DNA of 64,000 bases from an uncultured Nitrospiraceae bacterium (GTDB taxonomy: Bacteria > Nitrospirota > Thermodesulfovibrionia > Thermodesulfovibrionales > Dissulfurispiraceae), in assembly GCA_963727805.1 (NCBI GenBank), contig CAVSHF010000003.1, positions 1,856,001 to 1,920,000 on the forward strand, in the 5' to 3' direction. The number at the start of each line of letters is the position of its first letter. Positions within the stretch are counted from its first letter, which is position 1. Shown here one piece after another: positions 27,334-56,771 of the stretch. The translations under genes were made by a program, and so were the position numbers. The notes beneath the pieces are model-generated. The model did not search any database, was not told the origin of the DNA, and saw nothing but the letters and a program-made list of their open reading frames with translations.

Positions 27334-28746
27334 TTAGATATCGTAGTAGAGAAAGAATTCGAAAGGATGCGGCCTGAGTCTCAGGGCATCAACCTCTTTC
27401 GTTCTCTTGTAACTGATCCAAGTATCGATAGCATCCTGGGTGAAGACGTTGCCTTTCAGGAGATACTCGTGGTCTTCCTCGAGATTGTCGAGCGCCTCGT
27501 CAAGGCTGCCAGGCATGGTCGGGACTGCTGCAAGCTCCTCGGGACCAAGCTCGTAGATGTCCTTATCAAGCGGCTCTCCGGGGTCCAGCTTATTCTCAAT
27601 ACCATCAAGGCCAGCCATAAGCATTGCGGCAAAAGCAAGGTAGCCGTTGCATGACGGATCAGGGAACCTTACCTCAACCCTCTTGGCCTTGGGGCTCGGC
27701 GAATATGTCGGGATTCTCATTGATGCAGAGCGGTTCCTTGCAGAATATGCGAGATTGACAGGCGCTTCAAAGCCCGGTGTAAGTCTCTTGTAGGAGTTGG
27801 TGGTCGGGTTGGTAATGGCAGCGAGGGATTTTGCATGCTTCAAGATACCGCCGATGTAGTAAAGGGCGATCTCGCTAAGACCTGCATATCCGTTGCCTGC
27901 GAATGTAGGCTTTCCGTTCTTCCAGATGCTCTGGTGACAGTGCATTCCCGAACCGTTGTCGCCGAAAAGGGGCTTAGGCATGAAGGTAACTGTCTTGTCA
28001 TGCCTTCTTGCCACATTCTTTATGATGTACTTAAACATCATAAGCTTATCGGCCATCGTGACGAGAGAGTCGTATCTCATATCGATTTCTGCCTGCCCTG
28101 CAGTGGCGACTTCGTGGTGCTCTCGTTCGACATAGATGCCGCACTTCTGCATCTCCATTACCATCTCGGTCCTGATGTTGACCAGGCTGTCTGTCGGGGG
28201 GACCGGGAAGTATCCCTCTTTGTGTCTCGGCTTGTAGCCGAGATTCGGCCCCTCATCGCGGCCCGAATTCCAGATGCCTTCTTTGGAATCAATGAAGTAG
28301 TAGCCACTGTGCGCGGTCTGATCAAACATGACATCATCAAAGATAAAAAACTCCGCTTCGGGTCCGAAGTATGCAGTATCTCCGATGCCGGTCGACTTAA
28401 GATATGCCTCTGCTTTCTGGGCTATGTATCTGGGGTCTCTCGAATAAAACTCCCTTGTGATCGGATCGACGATGTTACAGATGAGGCTGATGGTGGGATA
28501 CTCCATGAAGGGATCCATAAAAGCGGTCTTTGGATCTGGGATAATCAGCATGTCCGAAGTATGAATCGCCTGCCAACCCCTGATCGAGGAACCATCGAAG
28601 CCGAGTCCTTCCTCGAAAACCTCTTCCTTTAATTCTGCGATGGGTACAGCAAAATGTTGCCAGATTCCAGGGAAATCAAGGAACTTGAAGTTCGCCATGA
28701 CTGCCTTGTTTTCCTGGGCCAATTTAATTACATCTTTTGGTGTCAT
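27334..28746 (-). CDS. glnA: Glutamine synthetase type I
   Basis: [49 protein letters not shown] adenylylation-type loop; start MTPKD after GGAGG. Confidence 0.98.
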
Positions 28747-28861
28747 TGCCTCTCCTCCTTCTTGTGTTTGTTTATTGCTCATTGCCGGTTCATTTGGCAA
28801 TTGCAGAACGATGAATATAGCCTGTCAGTTTATAAATCATCAATCGTCATTCAGAACAATC

Positions 28862-29203
<342 letters not shown>

Positions 29204-29213
29204 TCACCTCCTG

Positions 29214-29909
29214 TTAAGTAGTATGCGTGTTAAAAAATTTTTGATAAAATGCGAAAGCCCTTTTACGATAATCATCGTAGTACCGCCGTGTCTCGGCCCT
29301 CAGATTGTTCATATCAGTTTTCTCGCCGGACATCCAATCATATATTATCTGTTCGGTAACTTCAATATGGAACTGGAAGGCATAGCCCCTCCCATACTTG
29401 AATGCCTGATTAGGATAGAGATCGGAAAAGGCGAGACGTGAGGCCCCTTGGGGAATGTCAAAGGTCTCCCCATGCCAATGGAACACCTTGGACTTCTTCC
29501 ATATTGCGCCGGAATCGGGATGGCTGGCCATCATAATCATCAGTGAGTCACGCAATCCTTGTTCACACAGGGTGATATCAAGCCACCCAACTTCAGGCCC
29601 TGGACCCTTGTAGACCTTCGCACCAAAAGCCTTGGCCATTATCTGCGCTCCCAAGCAAACACCCAGCATTTTCTTTCCGACCAAGGCGAAGTCCCTCACC
29701 AGTTCCTCTTCTTTCCTGATGTAAGATATATCGTCGTTAACGCTCATTGGACCGCCGAGCATTATAAGCGTGTCAAAGGAGGTCGCATCGGGCAGAGACG
29801 CTCCCTTGCAGAGATCGATAATAGTATAGGGAATTTCCTTCAGACGAAGGTAATCCTCAATGGTACCGGGACCCTCGGTGCTTATATTCTTGCAGATGAG
29901 AACAGACAT
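29214..29909 (-). CDS. Class I glutamine amidotransferase-like protein
   Basis: GGPMSVND, GVCLGAQ nucleophile, WHGETF, QFHIE. Confidence 0.9.
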   Translation of the reverse strand: MSVLICKNISTEGPGTIEDYLRLKEIPYTIIDLCKGASLPDATSFDTLIMLGGPMSVNDDISYIRKEEELVRDFALVGKKMLGVCLGAQIMAKAFGAKVYKGPGPEVGWLDITLCEQGLRDSLMIMMASHPDSGAIWKKSKVFHWHGETFDIPQGASRLAFSDLYPNQAFKYGRGYAFQFHIEVTEQIIYDWMSGEKTDMNNLRAETRRYYDDYRKRAFAFYQKFFNTHTT

Positions 29910-29923
29910 AGATATATCATAGC

Positions 29924-29939
29924 AGCAACTACTGTACCA
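29924..29939 (-). promoter_or_regulatory. sigma54 promoter of GAT1-glnB-glnA
   Basis: TGGTAC-AGTAG-TTGCT (GG-N10-GC). Confidence 0.75.
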
Positions 29940-29981
29940 GAAAAGGGGGTGTTGAAAAGTAAGGTTATTTTAGAAAGAACA

Positions 29982-30016
29982 GACAGCCACTGCCTGTTTT
30001 TATGGCAGCGGCTGCC
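29982..30016 (-). terminator. Terminator downstream of amt
   Basis: GGCAGCCGCTGCC/GGCAGTGGCTGTC stem followed by TGTTCTTTCT on the minus strand. Confidence 0.7.
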
Positions 30017-30057
30017 CACAAAATAATCACTCATTAGTAATCGCTGAACAGATCAAT

Positions 30058-31359
30058 CTATGAGGAATAGCCACGCTCTCCGTGCTGGGAGATGTCGAGG
30101 CCCTTATGCTCATCATCTTCGTTGATCCTTAAGCCGACAATCATGTCAATAACTTTGAGCAGTATTATCGTTATGACAAAGGAATAAACAACACTAACAC
30201 CGACAGCTATGAATTGGGTGATAAGAAGGCCAGGATTACCGAAAAAAAGGCCGTTGCTTCCGGCGGGGTTGACGAGGGTCTGGGCAAAGAGACCCGTTGC
30301 AAGGGTACCAATAATTCCTCCCACCCCGTGAACACCGAATGCGTCAAGGGAGTCATCATATCCGAACTTAACTTTCATATTCAGTGCAACATAGCAGACA
30401 GCACCTGCTGAGAGACCTATGATTAAGGCCGACATGGGGCTGATGAAGCCCGACGCGGGGGTTACGGTGGCTAGTCCGGCAATTGAGCCTGTTGCTGCAC
30501 CGAACATGGTCGGTTTCCCCCTGTGCAACCATTCGATAATGACCCAGATGAGAGTTGCGGCAACTGCAGAAGTATGGGTCGCAACAAATGCCCATGTACT
30601 TAGGACTCCCGATGAAAGAGCGCTTCCGGCATTGAAGCCGAACCAGCCGAACCAGAGCAGGCCCGCGCCAAGAACTGTCATCGGGAGGTTATGGGGATAC
30701 ATGGCATCATGTGGAAATCCTTTTCGTCTGCCAATAACAAGAGCCGCGGCAAGTGCCGAGATACCCGATGAAATATGAACCACGACACCACCGGCAAAAT
30801 CCAGAGCGCCCATATTCTTGAGCCATCCGCCGGTTCCCCACAGCCAGTGGGCGATGGGATCATAGACAATCGTCGACCAGAGGACAACGAAAAGAAGAAA
30901 GGCTGAGAACTTCATGCGTTCGGCTACAGCACCCGTTATCAGCGCCGGTGTGATAACCGCGAACATCGCCTGGTAAATCATGAAGGCGAGATGCGGGACT
31001 GTCGGTGCATAGTCGGGATTCGGATTGGCACCGACGCCACATAGCCCAGCCCAGTCGAGGTTCCCGATGAAACCGTGGAAGTCCGGTCCGAAAGCAAGAC
31101 TATAGCCGAAAACTATCCATTGCACACTTATTATGGCAATGGCGATGAAACTCTGCATGAGCGTACCAAGTACATTCTTCCCCCTGACCATGCCGCCATA
31201 AAAAAGGGCAAGGCCGGGGGTCATCAACATCACGAGTGCCGCGGACAAGAGAACAAAGGCCGTATCACCCGAGTCGATCTTTGCCGGTGTGTCAGCAAAC
31301 GCGCAGACAGGGCTTGCCGTGAGCAGTAGGAAAACCGCAAAGAGCATCTTTGCTTTCAT
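30058..31359 (-). CDS. amt: Ammonium transporter (copy 1)
   Basis: [48 protein letters not shown]; start MKAK after GGAGG. Confidence 0.97.
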   Translation of the reverse strand: MKAKMLFAVFLLLTASPVCAFADTPAKIDSGDTAFVLLSAALVMLMTPGLALFYGGMVRGKNVLGTLMQSFIAIAIISVQWIVFGYSLAFGPDFHGFIGNLDWAGLCGVGANPNPDYAPTVPHLAFMIYQAMFAVITPALITGAVAERMKFSAFLLFVVLWSTIVYDPIAHWLWGTGGWLKNMGALDFAGGVVVHISSGISALAAALVIGRRKGFPHDAMYPHNLPMTVLGAGLLWFGWFGFNAGSALSSGVLSTWAFVATHTSAVAATLIWVIIEWLHRGKPTMFGAATGSIAGLATVTPASGFISPMSALIIGLSAGAVCYVALNMKVKFGYDDSLDAFGVHGVGGIIGTLATGLFAQTLVNPAGSNGLFFGNPGLLITQFIAVGVSVVYSFVITIILLKVIDMIVGLRINEDDEHKGLDISQHGERGYSS

Positions 31360-31416: not shown

Positions 31417-31432
31417 AGCCAGAATTGTACCA
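31417..31432 (-). promoter_or_regulatory. sigma54 promoter of amt copy 1
   Basis: TGGTAC-AATTC-TGGCT (GG-N10-GC). Confidence 0.7.
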
Positions 31433-31486
31433 GAATCGATATTGTTGTTTTTAAAGAAGATTTAAGAGAATAGCTCGCTGTCAAAG

Positions 31487-31595
31487 CTACATTTTTGTAG
31501 GATATTTTAGGCAATAACTTGTTTTTTTATAGAGCACGCAATAGTTTACCACAATAAGCTGCAATTTTGTATGAACTACATTTTTGTAGGATATT
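31487..31595. promoter_or_regulatory. Putative enhancer boxes (ACA-N4-TGT) upstream of amt
   Basis: Exact 20-bp direct repeat CTACATTTTTGTAGGATATT at 31487 and 31576, plus GCAATTTTGT at 31561. Confidence 0.7.
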
Positions 31596-31609: not shown

Positions 31610-31827
31610 CTGTCTATTCAGTCGCTCAATGCAATTGCCCGGAGGGATCAGACAATTCGAAAGTCTTTGATAACACTAAGTTCCATACACAGTTAGGGAA
31701 ATCCCAAAGATTTCTGCCGCCTCTTTCATCATGTAAATTACATTGCACGTTTGATGCCTGTTGCAACGGGCCGAGCCGGTATCCCTGCTCGGCCGCCGCA
31801 TTGGAGGGGTTGGAAGTCATCTTCCAT
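31610..31827 (-). ncRNA. Candidate sigma54-dependent sRNA (or structured long leader of amt)
   Basis: Own sigma54 promoter and boxes; three hairpins; two CCCUCC anti-SD motifs; no RBS-led ORF. 3' end uncertain. Confidence 0.5.
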
Positions 31828-31837
31828 TTTTCTATAT

Positions 31838-31853
31838 AGCCAGTTTCGTGCCA
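31838..31853 (-). promoter_or_regulatory. sigma54 promoter for the candidate sRNA
   Basis: TGGCAC-GAAAC-TGGCT; ACA-N4-TGT boxes at 31901 and 31919. Confidence 0.7.
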
Positions 31854-32081
31854 GAACGAAATCGCCTGTCTTCCAAGGCGTTAGACGATGTTCCATTCGC
31901 ACAATTCTGTAGAACAATACATATTTGTTGATTGCTGGTTTGTACGACTCTCGCCGTTTTTAAATGTCTTCTCTCTCTTACTTGCTTCTTCGCGGGCTGG
32001 GGTTTATATTAGGAGAAGGCACTTCTAAATTAAAAAAACTCCAAGATTCTGGAGATAATATGTTAGGCTGGAGGTCGTAAA

Positions 32082-33668
32082 ATGTCCCTAAAAACCAAGA
32101 TAGGACTCAGTTTTTTCCTCAGCGCCTCCATAATTGCAATCCTATCCTTATTTGAATACGTTAATTTCATGGAAATCATGGAACAGATAAAATACCTTGA
32201 AGTAACCGATACGATACGGAGTGACTCGCTGCAGATCCGTAGACACGAAAAAAATTTCTTCCTTTACCCCCTCCAGGAGAAAGAGGAGTCCGAAGCCATT
32301 CAGCAATATATCGTTCAGCTTAACAGCGTATTGAAGGAGAACTCAAAACTAGAGAAATCACATGAACTCACAAGGATGCAGCTTCTCATAAACGACTATG
32401 GGAAAAGGATGGAGAGAATTAAGCAGCTACTTGATAATGCGCGGGCCGGCTTTCGGCAGCTACAGCCATCCCATGCGAGGTATTCTAACTTTTTCCCATT
32501 AATTGAAACGGCATTAAATGATCAGCCGCTGAGAGCGGCAGAACTTTTAAAAAAGTCTTTTGGGGTGCCTCAATCCCATTCGCTGATAGAAACACTGCAG
32601 GAACTTGACTCTGAGATAAACCTCATCAGGAAGACCGGCGAGGACCTCATTTCTTCATCAAGAGATCTCGATAAGGTGGCCCGCAGCGAAGTCGACACCC
32701 TGATCCGCATATCACGAACTGAAATCATCGTATTCATGCTCCTGTTCTTCGTAAGTGGCATCACAACACTTTATCTGATCAACAGAAATGTAGTAAAGAG
32801 GCTGAAGTTGCTAATCGGCATTGTCGAGGGGACTGGACAGGGCCAGTTCCGACAGGTTGACGTCTCTTTGGGCAAATGGGACAACGATGAGGTCGGCATG
32901 CTGATCCGTGAATTCAACAACATGGAAAGGGAACTCCTTCAAAGAGAATCGGAGATTAATAGGAAGAACATGGAGCTGCTGCAGAGCAAGAAGCTCGCTG
33001 CCATCGGGACACTGGCCGCAGGAGTCGCTCATGAGCTGAACAACCCCCTCAACAATATCTACCTGTCCGTTCAAGTGCTAAAAAGAATGGCCGGAGATAA
33101 TTGTCCCGAATCGATAAATGAGATTGTTGAAGACATTACCACCCAGTCGACGCGTGTCAAGCACATCGTCGGGGAGCTCCTCGAATTTGCGAGAGGCAAG
33201 GAACCTAATCTTGCTCAGATCGGACTGAAAGACCTTATTGCGAAGGCCTATAAATCAGTAAGCGCCATAACGAACACCAATTCCGTCCGCTTCTCTGTTA
33301 AATCGGACTTGGATGAAATATCAATCGAAGCTGATCCCGATCAACTGGAGCAGGTATTTATCAATCTGTTTCATAACGCTGTCGAAGCCATGTCGGGAAC
33401 CGGGAATCTAAAGGTGGACATAGATTCCCAGGCGGCTAACGTAAGGATCAGGGTTTCGGATACCGGCCCTGGAATACCGCCCGATACCATTGAACGGCTC
33501 TTCGAACCTTTCTTCACTACAAAAGACAAAGGCACCGGCCTCGGCCTCGCTATTGTTTTCAATTTAATACTTAAACATGAAGGTGACATTCGAGTGGAAA
33601 GCGAAGAGGGAAAAGGGACCACATTTATCATAACTCTGCCGAAAGGAAAAGACAGACATGGCATTTAG
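32082..33668 (+). CDS. Membrane sensor histidine kinase (NtrB/AtoS type)
   Basis: Two TM, HAMP, AAGVAHELNNPL, QVFINL, DTGPGI, FEPFFTTK, GTGLGL. Confidence 0.94.
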   Translation: MSLKTKIGLSFFLSASIIAILSLFEYVNFMEIMEQIKYLEVTDTIRSDSLQIRRHEKNFFLYPLQEKEESEAIQQYIVQLNSVLKENSKLEKSHELTRMQLLINDYGKRMERIKQLLDNARAGFRQLQPSHARYSNFFPLIETALNDQPLRAAELLKKSFGVPQSHSLIETLQELDSEINLIRKTGEDLISSSRDLDKVARSEVDTLIRISRTEIIVFMLLFFVSGITTLYLINRNVVKRLKLLIGIVEGTGQGQFRQVDVSLGKWDNDEVGMLIREFNNMERELLQRESEINRKNMELLQSKKLAAIGTLAAGVAHELNNPLNNIYLSVQVLKRMAGDNCPESINEIVEDITTQSTRVKHIVGELLEFARGKEPNLAQIGLKDLIAKAYKSVSAITNTNSVRFSVKSDLDEISIEADPDQLEQVFINLFHNAVEAMSGTGNLKVDIDSQAANVRIRVSDTGPGIPPDTIERLFEPFFTTKDKGTGLGLAIVFNLILKHEGDIRVESEEGKGTTFIITLPKGKDRHGI

Positions 33669-34989
33669 GATTCTCATAGCCGAAGACGAAGAAATCACGC
33701 TGAAACATCTCATCAACACCCTTAAAAAAGAAGGGTACAATGTTTCGGGCATGCAAAATGGACTAGATGCTTTGCGGATGATTGAAAAGGAAGATTTCGA
33801 TCTACTTATTACCGACATAAAAATGCCTGGCATGACAGGTATGGAGCTGTTGCCAATCGTCAAATCCAAATACCCTGATACCGAAGTGATTGTGATTACC
33901 GGTTTCGGGACTATTGGATCGGCTGTGGATGCGGTAAAAAAGGGGGCTGTCGACTATATAACCAAGCCTTTCGACCTCGACGAATTGATCATCAAGGTTA
34001 AAAAAATCTTCAACCAGAAACAGCTAAAGAAAGAGAATACGGCGTTAAAGGCCTTTATCGAGAGGGACAAGCACACGCATGTCGTATCGAAAAGCGAGAG
34101 CATCAAAAAGATACTCGATAGCATAGAGGGCCTGCGGGATTCCGACTGCAACGTCTTACTCACGGGGGAAAGCGGCGTTGGAAAAAACCTCTTCGCAAAG
34201 ATGATCCATTACACGGGAAGAAGGCAGCAGAAGCCTTTCCTGTCTATAAACTGTGCTACGCTTACCGAAAACCTCCTGGCCAGCGAGCTGTTCGGATACG
34301 AGAGGGGGGCATTCACCGGGGCGGTAAAGACAAAGCCGGGCCTTGTCGAAATCGCCGACACAGGCACCCTCTTCCTCGATGAAATAGCGGAGATGACAAC
34401 AAACTTACAGGCAAAACTTCTGAAAGTGATCGAAGAAGGGGAATTTTTCCGAGTGGGCGGAACAAAACCTCTTAAGGTAGATGTCAGGGTCATTGCGGCA
34501 ACCAACAGGAATATAAAGGAGTTCATTTCAGAGGGTAAATTCAGAGAAGACCTCTATTACCGCCTGAATATAATGGAGATCTTCATCCCTCCCTTGAGGG
34601 ACCACCGTGAAGACATCGAACCACTGAGCCTCTTTTTCCTCGAAAAGCATCTGCCTAAGTACAACAACAAGGTCAAGGGCTTCACAAAAGAGGCGATGGA
34701 TATCCTGAAGCACTACAGCTTTCCCGGTAATGTGAGGGAGCTTGAGAATATCATCGAAAGAGCGATAATCCTGGAAAAATCCCAGTTTATCACTCCCGGT
34801 AGCCTTCCACAGAGCCTGACAATGTTCCAGATCGAGACCATTGGTCCCAGCAATATCATATCCATCGAGGAAATGAGTAAGCGATATGCCGAAAAAGTGA
34901 TAGATATGGTCGGCGGGAACAGATCGAAGGCTGCCGAACTTTTAGGGATATCAAGAACCAGTCTCTGGAGAATACTCAAGGGAGAGTAG
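33658..34989 (+). CDS. sigma54-dependent response regulator (NtrC family)
   Basis: Receiver, GESGVGK, ELFGYERGAFTGA, LFLDE, FPGNVREL, Fis-type HTH. Confidence 0.96.
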   Translation: MAFRILIAEDEEITLKHLINTLKKEGYNVSGMQNGLDALRMIEKEDFDLLITDIKMPGMTGMELLPIVKSKYPDTEVIVITGFGTIGSAVDAVKKGAVDYITKPFDLDELIIKVKKIFNQKQLKKENTALKAFIERDKHTHVVSKSESIKKILDSIEGLRDSDCNVLLTGESGVGKNLFAKMIHYTGRRQQKPFLSINCATLTENLLASELFGYERGAFTGAVKTKPGLVEIADTGTLFLDEIAEMTTNLQAKLLKVIEEGEFFRVGGTKPLKVDVRVIAATNRNIKEFISEGKFREDLYYRLNIMEIFIPPLRDHREDIEPLSLFFLEKHLPKYNNKVKGFTKEAMDILKHYSFPGNVRELENIIERAIILEKSQFITPGSLPQSLTMFQIETIGPSNIISIEEMSKRYAEKVIDMVGGNRSKAAELLGISRTSLWRILKGE

Positions 34990-45491: not shown

Positions 45492-45716
45492 ATGACTATG
45501 CGAGTCGTATATAACGATAATACTCACGATATGATTTCTGCGTATACTCTTGATCCACTTATTGAGAGCAAAAAAATCAAAATGTTTTATCGTCCATCCG
45601 AAGATAGATGGATTACTGTTGGAGTAGATTCGGTAAGGAAGAATACTCAGGAATTAGGCCATTATGACGGCCATGAACGGCGATTGGCAAATTTAATAGC
45701 AGCGCAACTTGTTTGA
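45492..45716 (+). CDS. GSU3473-like small protein
   Basis: MRVVY..DMI..LD.LI..KI..FYR..WITVGVD..Y.G.ERR pattern; GGAGG RBS. Confidence 0.75.
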   Translation: MTMRVVYNDNTHDMISAYTLDPLIESKKIKMFYRPSEDRWITVGVDSVRKNTQELGHYDGHERRLANLIAAQLV

Positions 45717-55611: not shown

Positions 55612-56520
55612 TTAAAAGGACATTGTAAGATTTATACCGTACACAAATGTCTCGTCAAGCTTTCCGTTGGGGTTGTATGAAACACCGTCGACGGTCTTTT
55701 TAGCCTTACTCGAAAGCGGGAACCAATACTGAGTAATCGGCTGCAATACAAAGTTCTTGCCGAGAGGTACACTCAGCCCAGCCTTTACATTGCCGTCATG
55801 AAGGGCGCTGTATTTAGCTCCTGTGTATGCGTTGGTCGAGCTCTGAAAGGTATCCCAATAGTTACTGCTCCCGACGAAATAGCCGAAACCAGCGCCCAGA
55901 TCAACCGTCATGTCGCCCGTAGGCAGTTTAAAGACAGGTATAGACTGGCTGAAGGACAGATTGAAGTAAGTGCCGGGATAGCCATCAACGTCGCGGTTAA
56001 CCGCCAGTGAAGGATGGGATATTATGTCATACGTAGCGCTGACGAAGAGCTCCTGTGTTTGCTTTGCATACGCCGTCCCGTAATATATATATCCTCCGGA
56101 AAGAGCCAGCTTATCAATATTGTAGGTATAGCTGAGAGTGAGGTCGGTCTCATTCCAGCTCTTCTGGCCAACACCCACACCCTTGCCGTTAGCATCGGTA
56201 GTTTTACCGGGAATAAACGACTGGGTCTGGTGCTGGTCGGTGTCGAGGTTGCCCCAAACGGTAGCGGAAAAGCCTTTATAATTTAGAGTTATTGTCGGTT
56301 CTATTACAACGCTCTTTGTGCCGAGCTCATATCCTCTGAATATATATCTGTTGAGAACTGCGACACCTGCACTTCCCGTAACCTTCGCCTCTTCAACCTT
56401 CGGCGCTTCGGCGGCAGTTGCCGGTGACACGGCTGCTGGAGCCGCTTCTTCTGCATGAACATTTGCAGTAAAAAGGAATAAAGCCATTATGATTGGCAAT
56501 GCTAATCTTAGACCCTTCAT
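55612..56520 (-). CDS. TorF/Gcw_chp-like outer membrane beta-barrel
   Basis: Signal peptide, RYIFRG, ETDLTLSY, C-terminal F; upstream of amtB-glnK. Confidence 0.75.
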   Translation of the reverse strand: MKGLRLALPIIMALFLFTANVHAEEAAPAAVSPATAAEAPKVEEAKVTGSAGVAVLNRYIFRGYELGTKSVVIEPTITLNYKGFSATVWGNLDTDQHQTQSFIPGKTTDANGKGVGVGQKSWNETDLTLSYTYNIDKLALSGGYIYYGTAYAKQTQELFVSATYDIISHPSLAVNRDVDGYPGTYFNLSFSQSIPVFKLPTGDMTVDLGAGFGYFVGSSNYWDTFQSSTNAYTGAKYSALHDGNVKAGLSVPLGKNFVLQPITQYWFPLSSKAKKTVDGVSYNPNGKLDETFVYGINLTMSF

Positions 56521-56567: not shown

Positions 56568-56771
56568 CTAGAGAACCCCGTTGCTCAACTCCCTTGCTTC
56601 CCCTTCTCCCTCCTCCTTTCGTATCTCGTATTTCTTGATCTTGTAGCCGATTATCCTTTCAGTAATGCCGAGCGTTCGCGCCGCCTTCGCCCTTACCCAG
56701 TTGCTCTCCTTGAGTGCCTTTGTGATCTCCTCTTTTTCTATCTCGGTCACCTTCGTCTTGAGCGAACCCAT
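56568..56771 (-). CDS. Stand-alone Fis-type (NifA-like) helix-turn-helix protein
   Basis: EKEEITKALKESNWVRAKAARTLGITERIIGYKIKKY; GAGGAGG RBS; 67 aa. Confidence 0.85.
   Translation of the reverse strand: MGSLKTKVTEIEKEEITKALKESNWVRAKAARTLGITERIIGYKIKKYEIRKEEGEGEARELSNGVL

Follow-up and report, generated by a model that had tools for sequence, protein, structure and literature searches.

What does the DNA between amtB and a divergent histidine kinase/regulator pair do in this genome? Within the window, the 64,000-nt stretch analysed here, a sigma54-type promoter opens onto a candidate RNA element lying between these genes, on the same strand as amtB and 470 nt upstream of it. The first-pass annotation had read it as a nitrogen-regulated small RNA (sRNA) with two exposed anti-Shine-Dalgarno (anti-SD) motifs, and every sequence feature it named is present where it was placed. 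Its central proposal, that sigma54 drives a non-coding RNA whose anti-SD seed is exposed, and not a protein gene, agrees with what we see in relatives, where the RNA features appear to be kept and the reading frame is not. Our preferred reading, to which we give a probability of roughly 0.6, is that an RNA of about 88 nt would act in trans, be made from its own sigma54 promoter under nitrogen shortage, and repress argJ and a porin gene by pairing of CCCUCCAA over their ribosome-binding sites. What the analysis shows directly is sequence conservation, folding potential, a match to a promoter, synteny and complementarity. The features are as follows.

27334..31359, minus strand: amtB (ATG at 31359) and, downstream of it, genes for a glutamine amidotransferase, glnK/PII and glnA
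31417..31587, minus strand: separate amtB control region, with CTACA-AAAA-TGTAG boxes at 31587-31578 and 31498-31489 and its own sigma54 promoter at 31432-31417
31633..31657, minus strand: second hairpin of the first-pass annotation, with an AUCCCUC loop, in this genome only and outside the conserved RNA
31740..31827, minus strand: core of the predicted sRNA as kept in relatives, roughly 88 nt up to a provisional 3' end
31740..31761, minus strand: P3, a small hairpin (GCA(U)-loop-(A)UGC) with AU-rich sequence after it, a possible weak 3' end
31762..31800, minus strand: P2, a long GC-rich hairpin
31798..31815, minus strand: predicted pairing region, with ACCCCUCCAA at 31810-31801 and the invariant seed CCCUCCAA at 31808-31801
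31811..31826, minus strand: P1, the hairpin UGGAAG-AUGA-CUUCCA at the predicted 5' end; stem kept, loop length variable
31838..31853, minus strand: sigma54-type -24/-12 promoter TGGCACGAAACTGGCT, predicted +1 at 31827
31928-31919 and 31910-31901, minus strand: two ACA-N4-TGT boxes, likely sigma54-activator sites, weaker than the amt boxes and partly conserved
31982..32010, plus strand: sigma70-like promoter (TTGCTT-17-TATATT), conserved and directed towards the divergent pair of kinase and regulator genes
32082..34989, plus strand: divergent histidine kinase and sigma54 response regulator

A structured, non-coding core restricted to the genus

The element sits at the same locus, always between the kinase gene and amtB, in six of the seven same-genus relatives of the window's genome (G000). 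A DNA search of 41 genomes matched the promoter and first 110 nt in five of seven same-genus genomes, and G002 also holds the element. A model, R1, was built from the seven RNA-bearing genomes, in each of which it picks out a single copy at 87-104 bits; it found no copy in G006 (same genus, 100% complete), and among 60 family genomes of other genera it gave only weak matches (E 0.03-0.84) in five, none in an amt context. All seven metagenome matches lie before amtB and most are nearly identical to genome copies; one, L118, is a new variant with its stems kept. A promoter-plus-P1 pattern run over 317 genomes of the order yielded nothing convincing in the 26 matching genomes outside the genus: nearly all of the 24 loci inspected fall inside ORFs, and 0 of 21 score with R1. 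The seed pattern, run over 68 family genomes, revealed no new RNA gene among 30 loci inspected, blastn against plasmids found no match to the element, and no paralogue within G000 appeared beyond E about 5. Rfam 15 produced no match reaching a family's gathering threshold, either in the window or in the loci L010, L012 and L013; two chance-level matches (E 1.8 and 6.6) fall on the opposite strand. Because the model, pattern, metagenome and Rfam searches added no convincing outside copy, we regard the element as confined to the genus within the set of genomes searched.

Folding of the 86-nt core gives -38.1 kcal/mol (z = -4.05), which none of 200 shuffles equals, and the orthologues fold better than most of their shuffles, with z from -2.3 to -6.2. 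Over the 12 pairs of P2, 93.8% of cells are paired (the figure is also given for P2 and P3 together), with one two-sided change; stem covariation does not exceed that of shuffles (40 of 500). P1, the linker and P2 recur in six of the seven relatives and the 64-aa ORF does not: no reading frame is conserved, that ORF included, the candidate ORFs differing in frame and length between genomes. A functional RNA at this locus is, in our estimation, very likely.

Conservation also sets the extent of the element. A six-genome alignment has 46 of 86 invariant columns in the core, 10 of 84 in the spacer that follows and 0 of 25 in the second hairpin. The first-pass view of a unit of about 200 nt is not borne out, as conservation stops at about 88 nt. 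Of the two proposed anti-SD motifs, the linker seed is conserved, whereas the loop of the second hairpin is not. In the six relatives the interval from the core to the amt promoter contains no other CCTCC or CCCTC, and since the second hairpin is unconserved as well, we count one conserved anti-SD motif, not two.

Promoter and a proposed nitrogen regulon

The promoter is recognisable in all six RNA-bearing relatives, each time 11-12 nt ahead of the first hairpin, with the -12 GC or the -24 GG changed in some of them. RpoN is encoded in the genome of the window. In seven genomes a match to the sigma54 consensus keeps its distance from P1, which points to an independent promoter, as in the class of trans-acting sRNAs.

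The boxes upstream had been described as laid out like those before both amt loci. ACA-N4-TGT boxes do stand there, but they are weaker and less conserved than the amt boxes. Scored with a matrix trained on 22 amt boxes from relatives, the two boxes in G000 reach 14.9 and 5.7 (67 sites genome-wide reach 12), and the best box at the RNA promoter scores 10.5, 10.2, 7.6, 4.9 and 1.8 in five relatives. Weaker boxes keep their spacing in four relatives; almost none is left in G003, and boxes are weak or absent in G001, G003 and G007. Sigma54 enhancers tolerate changes of position, so the RNA promoter might also make use of the strong amt boxes that lie 250 bp downstream. G001 has lost about 80 bp of the region with the activator boxes (L011 1150-1230) and its -12 element is degenerate; the RNA core and the best porin match are intact.

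Box clusters accompany a sigma54 promoter at only three loci in G000, all of them likely nitrogen-uptake genes: amtB, a further amt operon (at 56.8 kb) and, on contig C5, an operon with an amino-acid-permease-like gene. A further box pair precedes the own gene of a NifA-like GAF-AAA-HTH activator (C3:1933220-1934785, gene 1933220-1934659), close relatives of which occur in 23 of the 30 family genomes searched. Nitrogen regulation of the RNA, which we infer, is plausible, and its induction by nitrogen shortage seems likely to us.

The divergent kinase and regulator were considered as NtrBC and rejected on gene context. Among the matches listed, the pair in other genera often adjoins usp genes, not amt, and for this reason it is probably not the nitrogen regulator. 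The best full-length named relative of the kinase is from a Nitrospirae MAG.

Two predicted targets recur across genomes

The genes argJ and porin were first spotted by eye in G000 and then tested in relatives. When duplex energy is averaged over the seven RNA orthologues, the porin ranks first and argJ second of 3443 G000 start regions (gene calls are from a simple caller, and some starts are wrong). Cofolding within G000 ranks them 89 and 24, respectively. A single-genome structure-aware ranking, in which 2213 of the 3443 genes were scored, is non-specific, with argJ at 26 and the porin at 258, and single-genome energies are unexceptional: of 78 shuffled linkers, 2 equal the top value and 7 the next one down.

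It is recurrence that singles out the pair. Sites with the 8-mer TTGGAGGG before a start were inspected in G001, G002, G004, G005 and G007, and only argJ and porin recur; G003, whose 48 sites were sampled, has both (three sites of G002/G005 and ORFs shorter than 40 aa were left out of this screen). The predicted fold leaves the seed mostly unpaired in four of the seven genomes (G000, G001, G004 and G005), partly paired in two (G002 and G007) and paired in one (G003). A conserved seed, accessible to this predicted extent, would face conserved complementary sites in distant mRNAs. That at least one of argJ and porin is a real target is, in our estimation, rather probable.

Two ribosome-binding sites in the window had been offered earlier as possible partners, and neither is supported. 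Among the 3443 start regions, duplex energy puts the site before 35286 at 43-138 and cofolding puts it at 149, and the one before 45492 reaches a cofolding rank of 12 only through an extra C in G000. The latter precedes a small protein of the GSU3473 family (45492-45716, plus strand), which has 8 copies in G000 and 11 in G003, many with G-rich leaders; the family was rejected as a target class, with TTGGAGGG in 0 of 29 leaders. Also rejected were thiG, ilvB, the gene at C3:1081791 and sdhC, none of which recurs at the 8-mer level. The sdhC-like start region of G002 alone (L201, C100:22287-22303) has a long seed match.

The argJ site

The argJ gene scores above the NCBIfam cut-off. Its start overlaps the end of argC, behind rpsI, the junction lying at C3:1476524 of G000 on the minus strand, and the site is present in all seven RNA-bearing genomes versus none of 28 other argJ loci. 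It consists of the last argC codons, GCA TTG GAG GGW TTG in all seven, and would form a duplex of about 15 bp with the RNA. With neighbouring argC/argJ codons as the null, four-fold columns are identical in 1 of 115 cases, Ala codons in 0 of 23 and Leu codons are all TTG in 0 of 13. G006 ends argC with the same ALEG, using the codons GCG CTG, and the site is found at 0 of 12 argC ends in genomes that lack the RNA. GGAGG within the site is also argJ's own SD; this role accounts for GGAGG, but not easily for GCA and the first TTG. A/T-rich codon choice near the argJ start could instead have been selected for translation.

Several results temper the case. The RNA of G002 and G007 carries CCAAGGC while their argJ site stays GCAUUGG, a seed-flank change unmatched in the target, so that compensatory RNA-target covariation is not seen here. 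These two RNAs cofold with the G006 argJ as well as or better than with their own (own versus G006, -12.9 versus -13.0 and -12.3 versus -16.1 for the G002 and G007 RNAs). The ArgJ tree (22 rows, without G005 and G041) gives G006 no firm placement (support 66/25), and because G006 is unplaced and the RNA-bearing genomes may be one clade, the shared sites may be due to descent.

The porin site

The second predicted target encodes a porin of the alginate-export family (Pfam Alginate_exp), with a weak partial match to DESULF_POR1 and with nearest atlas clusters mostly from Nitrospirota; it may resemble Geobacter OmpJ. In G000 its leader lies at C3:1738899 on the plus strand. All six RNA-bearing genomes with a porin 5' end carry its site, CCATTGGAGGGTTAGGAAGTG, and none of 26 other loci has the 8-mer. 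The predicted duplex, lengthened by UUCC of the P1 3' strand, reaches up to 18 bp in G001, where the RNA pairing region and the porin ribosome site match at 18 of 19 positions. Cofolding of the RNAs with their own porin leaders gives -11.2 to -13.8 kcal/mol, and 21 of 22 leaders from RNA-less genomes bind more weakly; the G045 leader binds at -16.0. A near-identical site occurs in three g35 genomes without the RNA, and most of the seed target falls within the loop of a hairpin that the porin leader itself forms. Codon adaptation places the porin at rank 318 of 2566, which does not single it out as highly expressed.

The porin leader has features of its own. In G000 (L207, C3:1738500-1738900) it forms a CCGCC-loop-GGCGG hairpin, CTGAACTAACC...GGTTAGGAAGTG, and could itself regulate in cis as an RNA; upstream of it are sigma54-like as well as sigma70-like promoters. 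A second porin copy with the same leader is found near a contig end (C5:1239350-1240784), its frame stopping after 73 aa, possibly through an assembly error.

Broad action as an alternative

A real anti-SD sRNA need not be selective. It could act broadly on GGAGGG-type sites, or on other targets, with the argJ and porin matches kept for the sake of the SD, descent or leader structure. GGAGGG is present in 182 of 3443 G000 start regions, structure-aware rankings place other genes first, and the missing compensatory change in G002 and G007, like the family-wide conservation of the porin leader, is what such an RNA might show. However, the 8-mer is kept across genomes only at argJ and porin, and the synonymous positions fixed at argJ extend outside the SD core, against the 1/115 background. 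Moreover, the control 8-mers ATGGAGGG and CTGGAGGG gave, by eye, no motif-to-start string recurring in at least four of five genomes, whereas TTGGAGGG gave two. We regard broad action as unlikely, and selective repression of argJ and porin remains our preferred reading.

Extent of the transcript and further alternatives

The first-pass annotation had itself considered a long regulatory leader for amt, and the element could be the structured 5' end of a leader running into amtB-glnK-glnA, attenuating in cis or sequestering the amt ribosome site. The shared strand and the 470-nt distance to amtB allow this, several amtB start regions contain TGGAGG, and no clear terminator is seen: a terminator scan lists none at P3, and no clear U-tract, which would be a U-tail for Hfq, follows it. 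One 151-nt contig from a metatranscriptome library covers 31656-31806 with four differences and so extends past P3; it could stem from a single molecule or from DNA, and it gives no proof of transcription or of the strand. The read data comprise four runs, all contigs, of which the three RNA runs hold 5-9% of words and may stem from one campaign. For runs X2 and X3, depth is 3.48 and 2.83 in the bin 31658-31931 and 0-0.04 in the flanking bins, where the uncovered parts are uninformative. Against a leader, amtB's own conserved promoter (31432-31417) and box cluster intervene and the spacer is unconserved. The amtB start ranks only 506-1323 by duplex energy and 1119 by cofolding, and G006 retains amt and its boxes without the element. 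A leader function is quite improbable on this balance.

Even less probable is an RNA that binds protein instead of pairing, whether as a decoy for CsrA or as a two-hairpin site of ANTAR type. The conserved hairpins, two or three in number, would fit such a role, but the loops differ in length and sequence and it is the single-stranded linker that is invariant. CsrB/RsmY-type decoys combine multiple GGA loops with a CsrA partner; here no GGA loop is conserved, and CsrA was found in none of five genomes by a search whose control was positive. ANTAR-target attenuators combine twin hexaloops and a terminator with an ANTAR protein; the loops here lack the A1/G4 pattern of the ANTAR hexaloop, and a search for ANTAR proteins, which gave no match even in a control genome, carries no weight either way. 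Finally, conserved DNA (an operator or promoter-proximal sites) or a short peptide gene without functional RNA is barely credible: TGGAA..TTCCA is an inverted repeat and an AUG stands at the predicted +1 in five of seven genomes, but the spacing inside the repeat varies, ORF frames and lengths differ, and the stems, whose fold energies stand out from shuffles, survive G-U and one-sided changes.

Relation to known nitrogen-stress RNAs

The candidate shares traits with several known sRNAs, and it lacks the motifs that define NfeR1 and NrsZ. NfeR1 (alpha-r14) of Sinorhizobium meliloti is a nitrogen-stress-induced trans sRNA of three hairpins that blocks ribosome-binding sites with an unpaired anti-SD; it has CCUCCUCCC motifs in three loops, is switched on by LsrB and held down by NtrC, acts independently of Hfq and targets ntrB and ABC-transporter mRNAs (PMC10746234). 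Our candidate would likewise be a nitrogen-linked, three-hairpin RNA with predicted anti-SD blocking. Unlike NfeR1, it has a single linker seed, CCCUCCAA, with none further in the six relatives, where the alpha-r14 family has three hairpins each with an unpaired CCUCCUCCC; its promoter is of sigma54 type, and its predicted targets are argJ and porin.

NrsZ of Pseudomonas aeruginosa is RpoN-dependent, requires NtrB/C, responds to nitrogen limitation and activates rhlA through three repeated stem-loops with ACAGGCAG loops (PMC4253122). An RpoN-type promoter and, as we infer here, nitrogen limitation would be common to both. In contrast, repression is predicted for our RNA, and ACAGGCA occurs in some orthologues only, unrepeated and at the base of P3 rather than in a loop, so that the repeated stem-loops described for NrsZ are not seen.

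GlnZ of Enterobacteriaceae, an Hfq-dependent RNA cut by RNase E from the glnA 3' UTR, pairs far upstream of the sucA start and rebalances metabolism under nitrogen limitation (PMC9731577). Both RNAs are tied to a glnA locus and nitrogen limitation, but ours would start from a separate promoter ahead of amtB, and its predicted pairing is with the SD. In Synechocystis, NsiR4, under NtcA, affects arginine synthesis indirectly by lowering the inhibitor PirA through pairing near the ribosome-binding site (PMC9196836). Our candidate would similarly be a nitrogen-limitation sRNA that touches arginine synthesis by pairing near a ribosome-binding site; its predicted target is the enzyme gene argJ itself, however, and the effect would be of opposite sign.

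We found no description of direct sRNA repression of argJ in the literature, nor of an Hfq sRNA in Nitrospirota (Thermodesulfovibrionia, Nitrospirae), though supplements and subscription journals could hold either. The element is a real, conserved sRNA candidate, undescribed as far as these searches reach, with one seed, not two, and two well-supported predicted targets.

A model for nitrogen-dependent repression

We propose a model where a NifA-like GAF activator would bind the CTACA-N4-TGTAG boxes common to both amt operons and switch on the RNA, which sigma54 polymerase would transcribe under nitrogen limitation. The seed would nucleate on UUGGAGGG; on argJ the duplex would span about 15 bp, and on the porin mRNA P1 would open to allow up to 18 bp, reaching the GUG start. 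Ribosome access would then be blocked, probably with Hfq, which is encoded in all eight genomes of the genus. The predicted result is less flux into nitrogen-costly arginine and a lower output of the general porin, at the same time as amt, glnK, glnA and outer-membrane genes specific to the regulon would be induced. ArgR was found in none of five genomes, and with argJ overlapping argC behind rpsI, the RNA would give argJ a control apart from its operon.

It is tempting to speculate that the sRNA is young and arose within the genus. In this tentative scenario, which we think possible though doubtful, the pairing region began as an almost exact copy, in antisense, of the porin ribosome site and was wired into the NifA-like sigma54 nitrogen regulon. 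It then recruited argJ by the fixing of synonymous codons at the argC end, and would let nitrogen shortage hold back arginine synthesis in a lineage that gave no ArgR match. Such an origin, if true, would offer a readable case of sRNA birth and of target gain inside coding sequence.

Were the model itself correct, it would define a new nitrogen-responsive sRNA family in a likely member of the Nitrospirota, with two named predicted targets, and would explain ArgR-independent control of an arginine gene lying behind rpsI and argC. The synonymous-codon signature may provide a general route to sRNA target sites in uncultured lineages.

Further observations at nitrogen loci

A conserved sigma54 promoter (29939-29924, minus strand) precedes the amidotransferase-glnK-glnA genes, with no strong boxes near. 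The amtB gene of G006 has the full TTGGAGGG at its ribosome site (L336 1500-1530) and amtB of RNA-bearing genomes is without it, a difference that might reflect avoidance of self-repression. The second amt operon is led by a 67-aa NifA-like gene that encodes a helix-turn-helix only (56568-56771, minus strand), and a paralogue leads another box-controlled operon in G000 (C5:1137763-1137954); the protein might act on the activator, either as a decoy or by feedback repression. Also ahead of amt2 is a gene for a 302-aa signal-peptide protein, possibly a porin of the nitrogen regulon (55612-56520, minus strand; weak Gcw_chp match, E 0.003), with a paralogue at C5:1136750-1137691.
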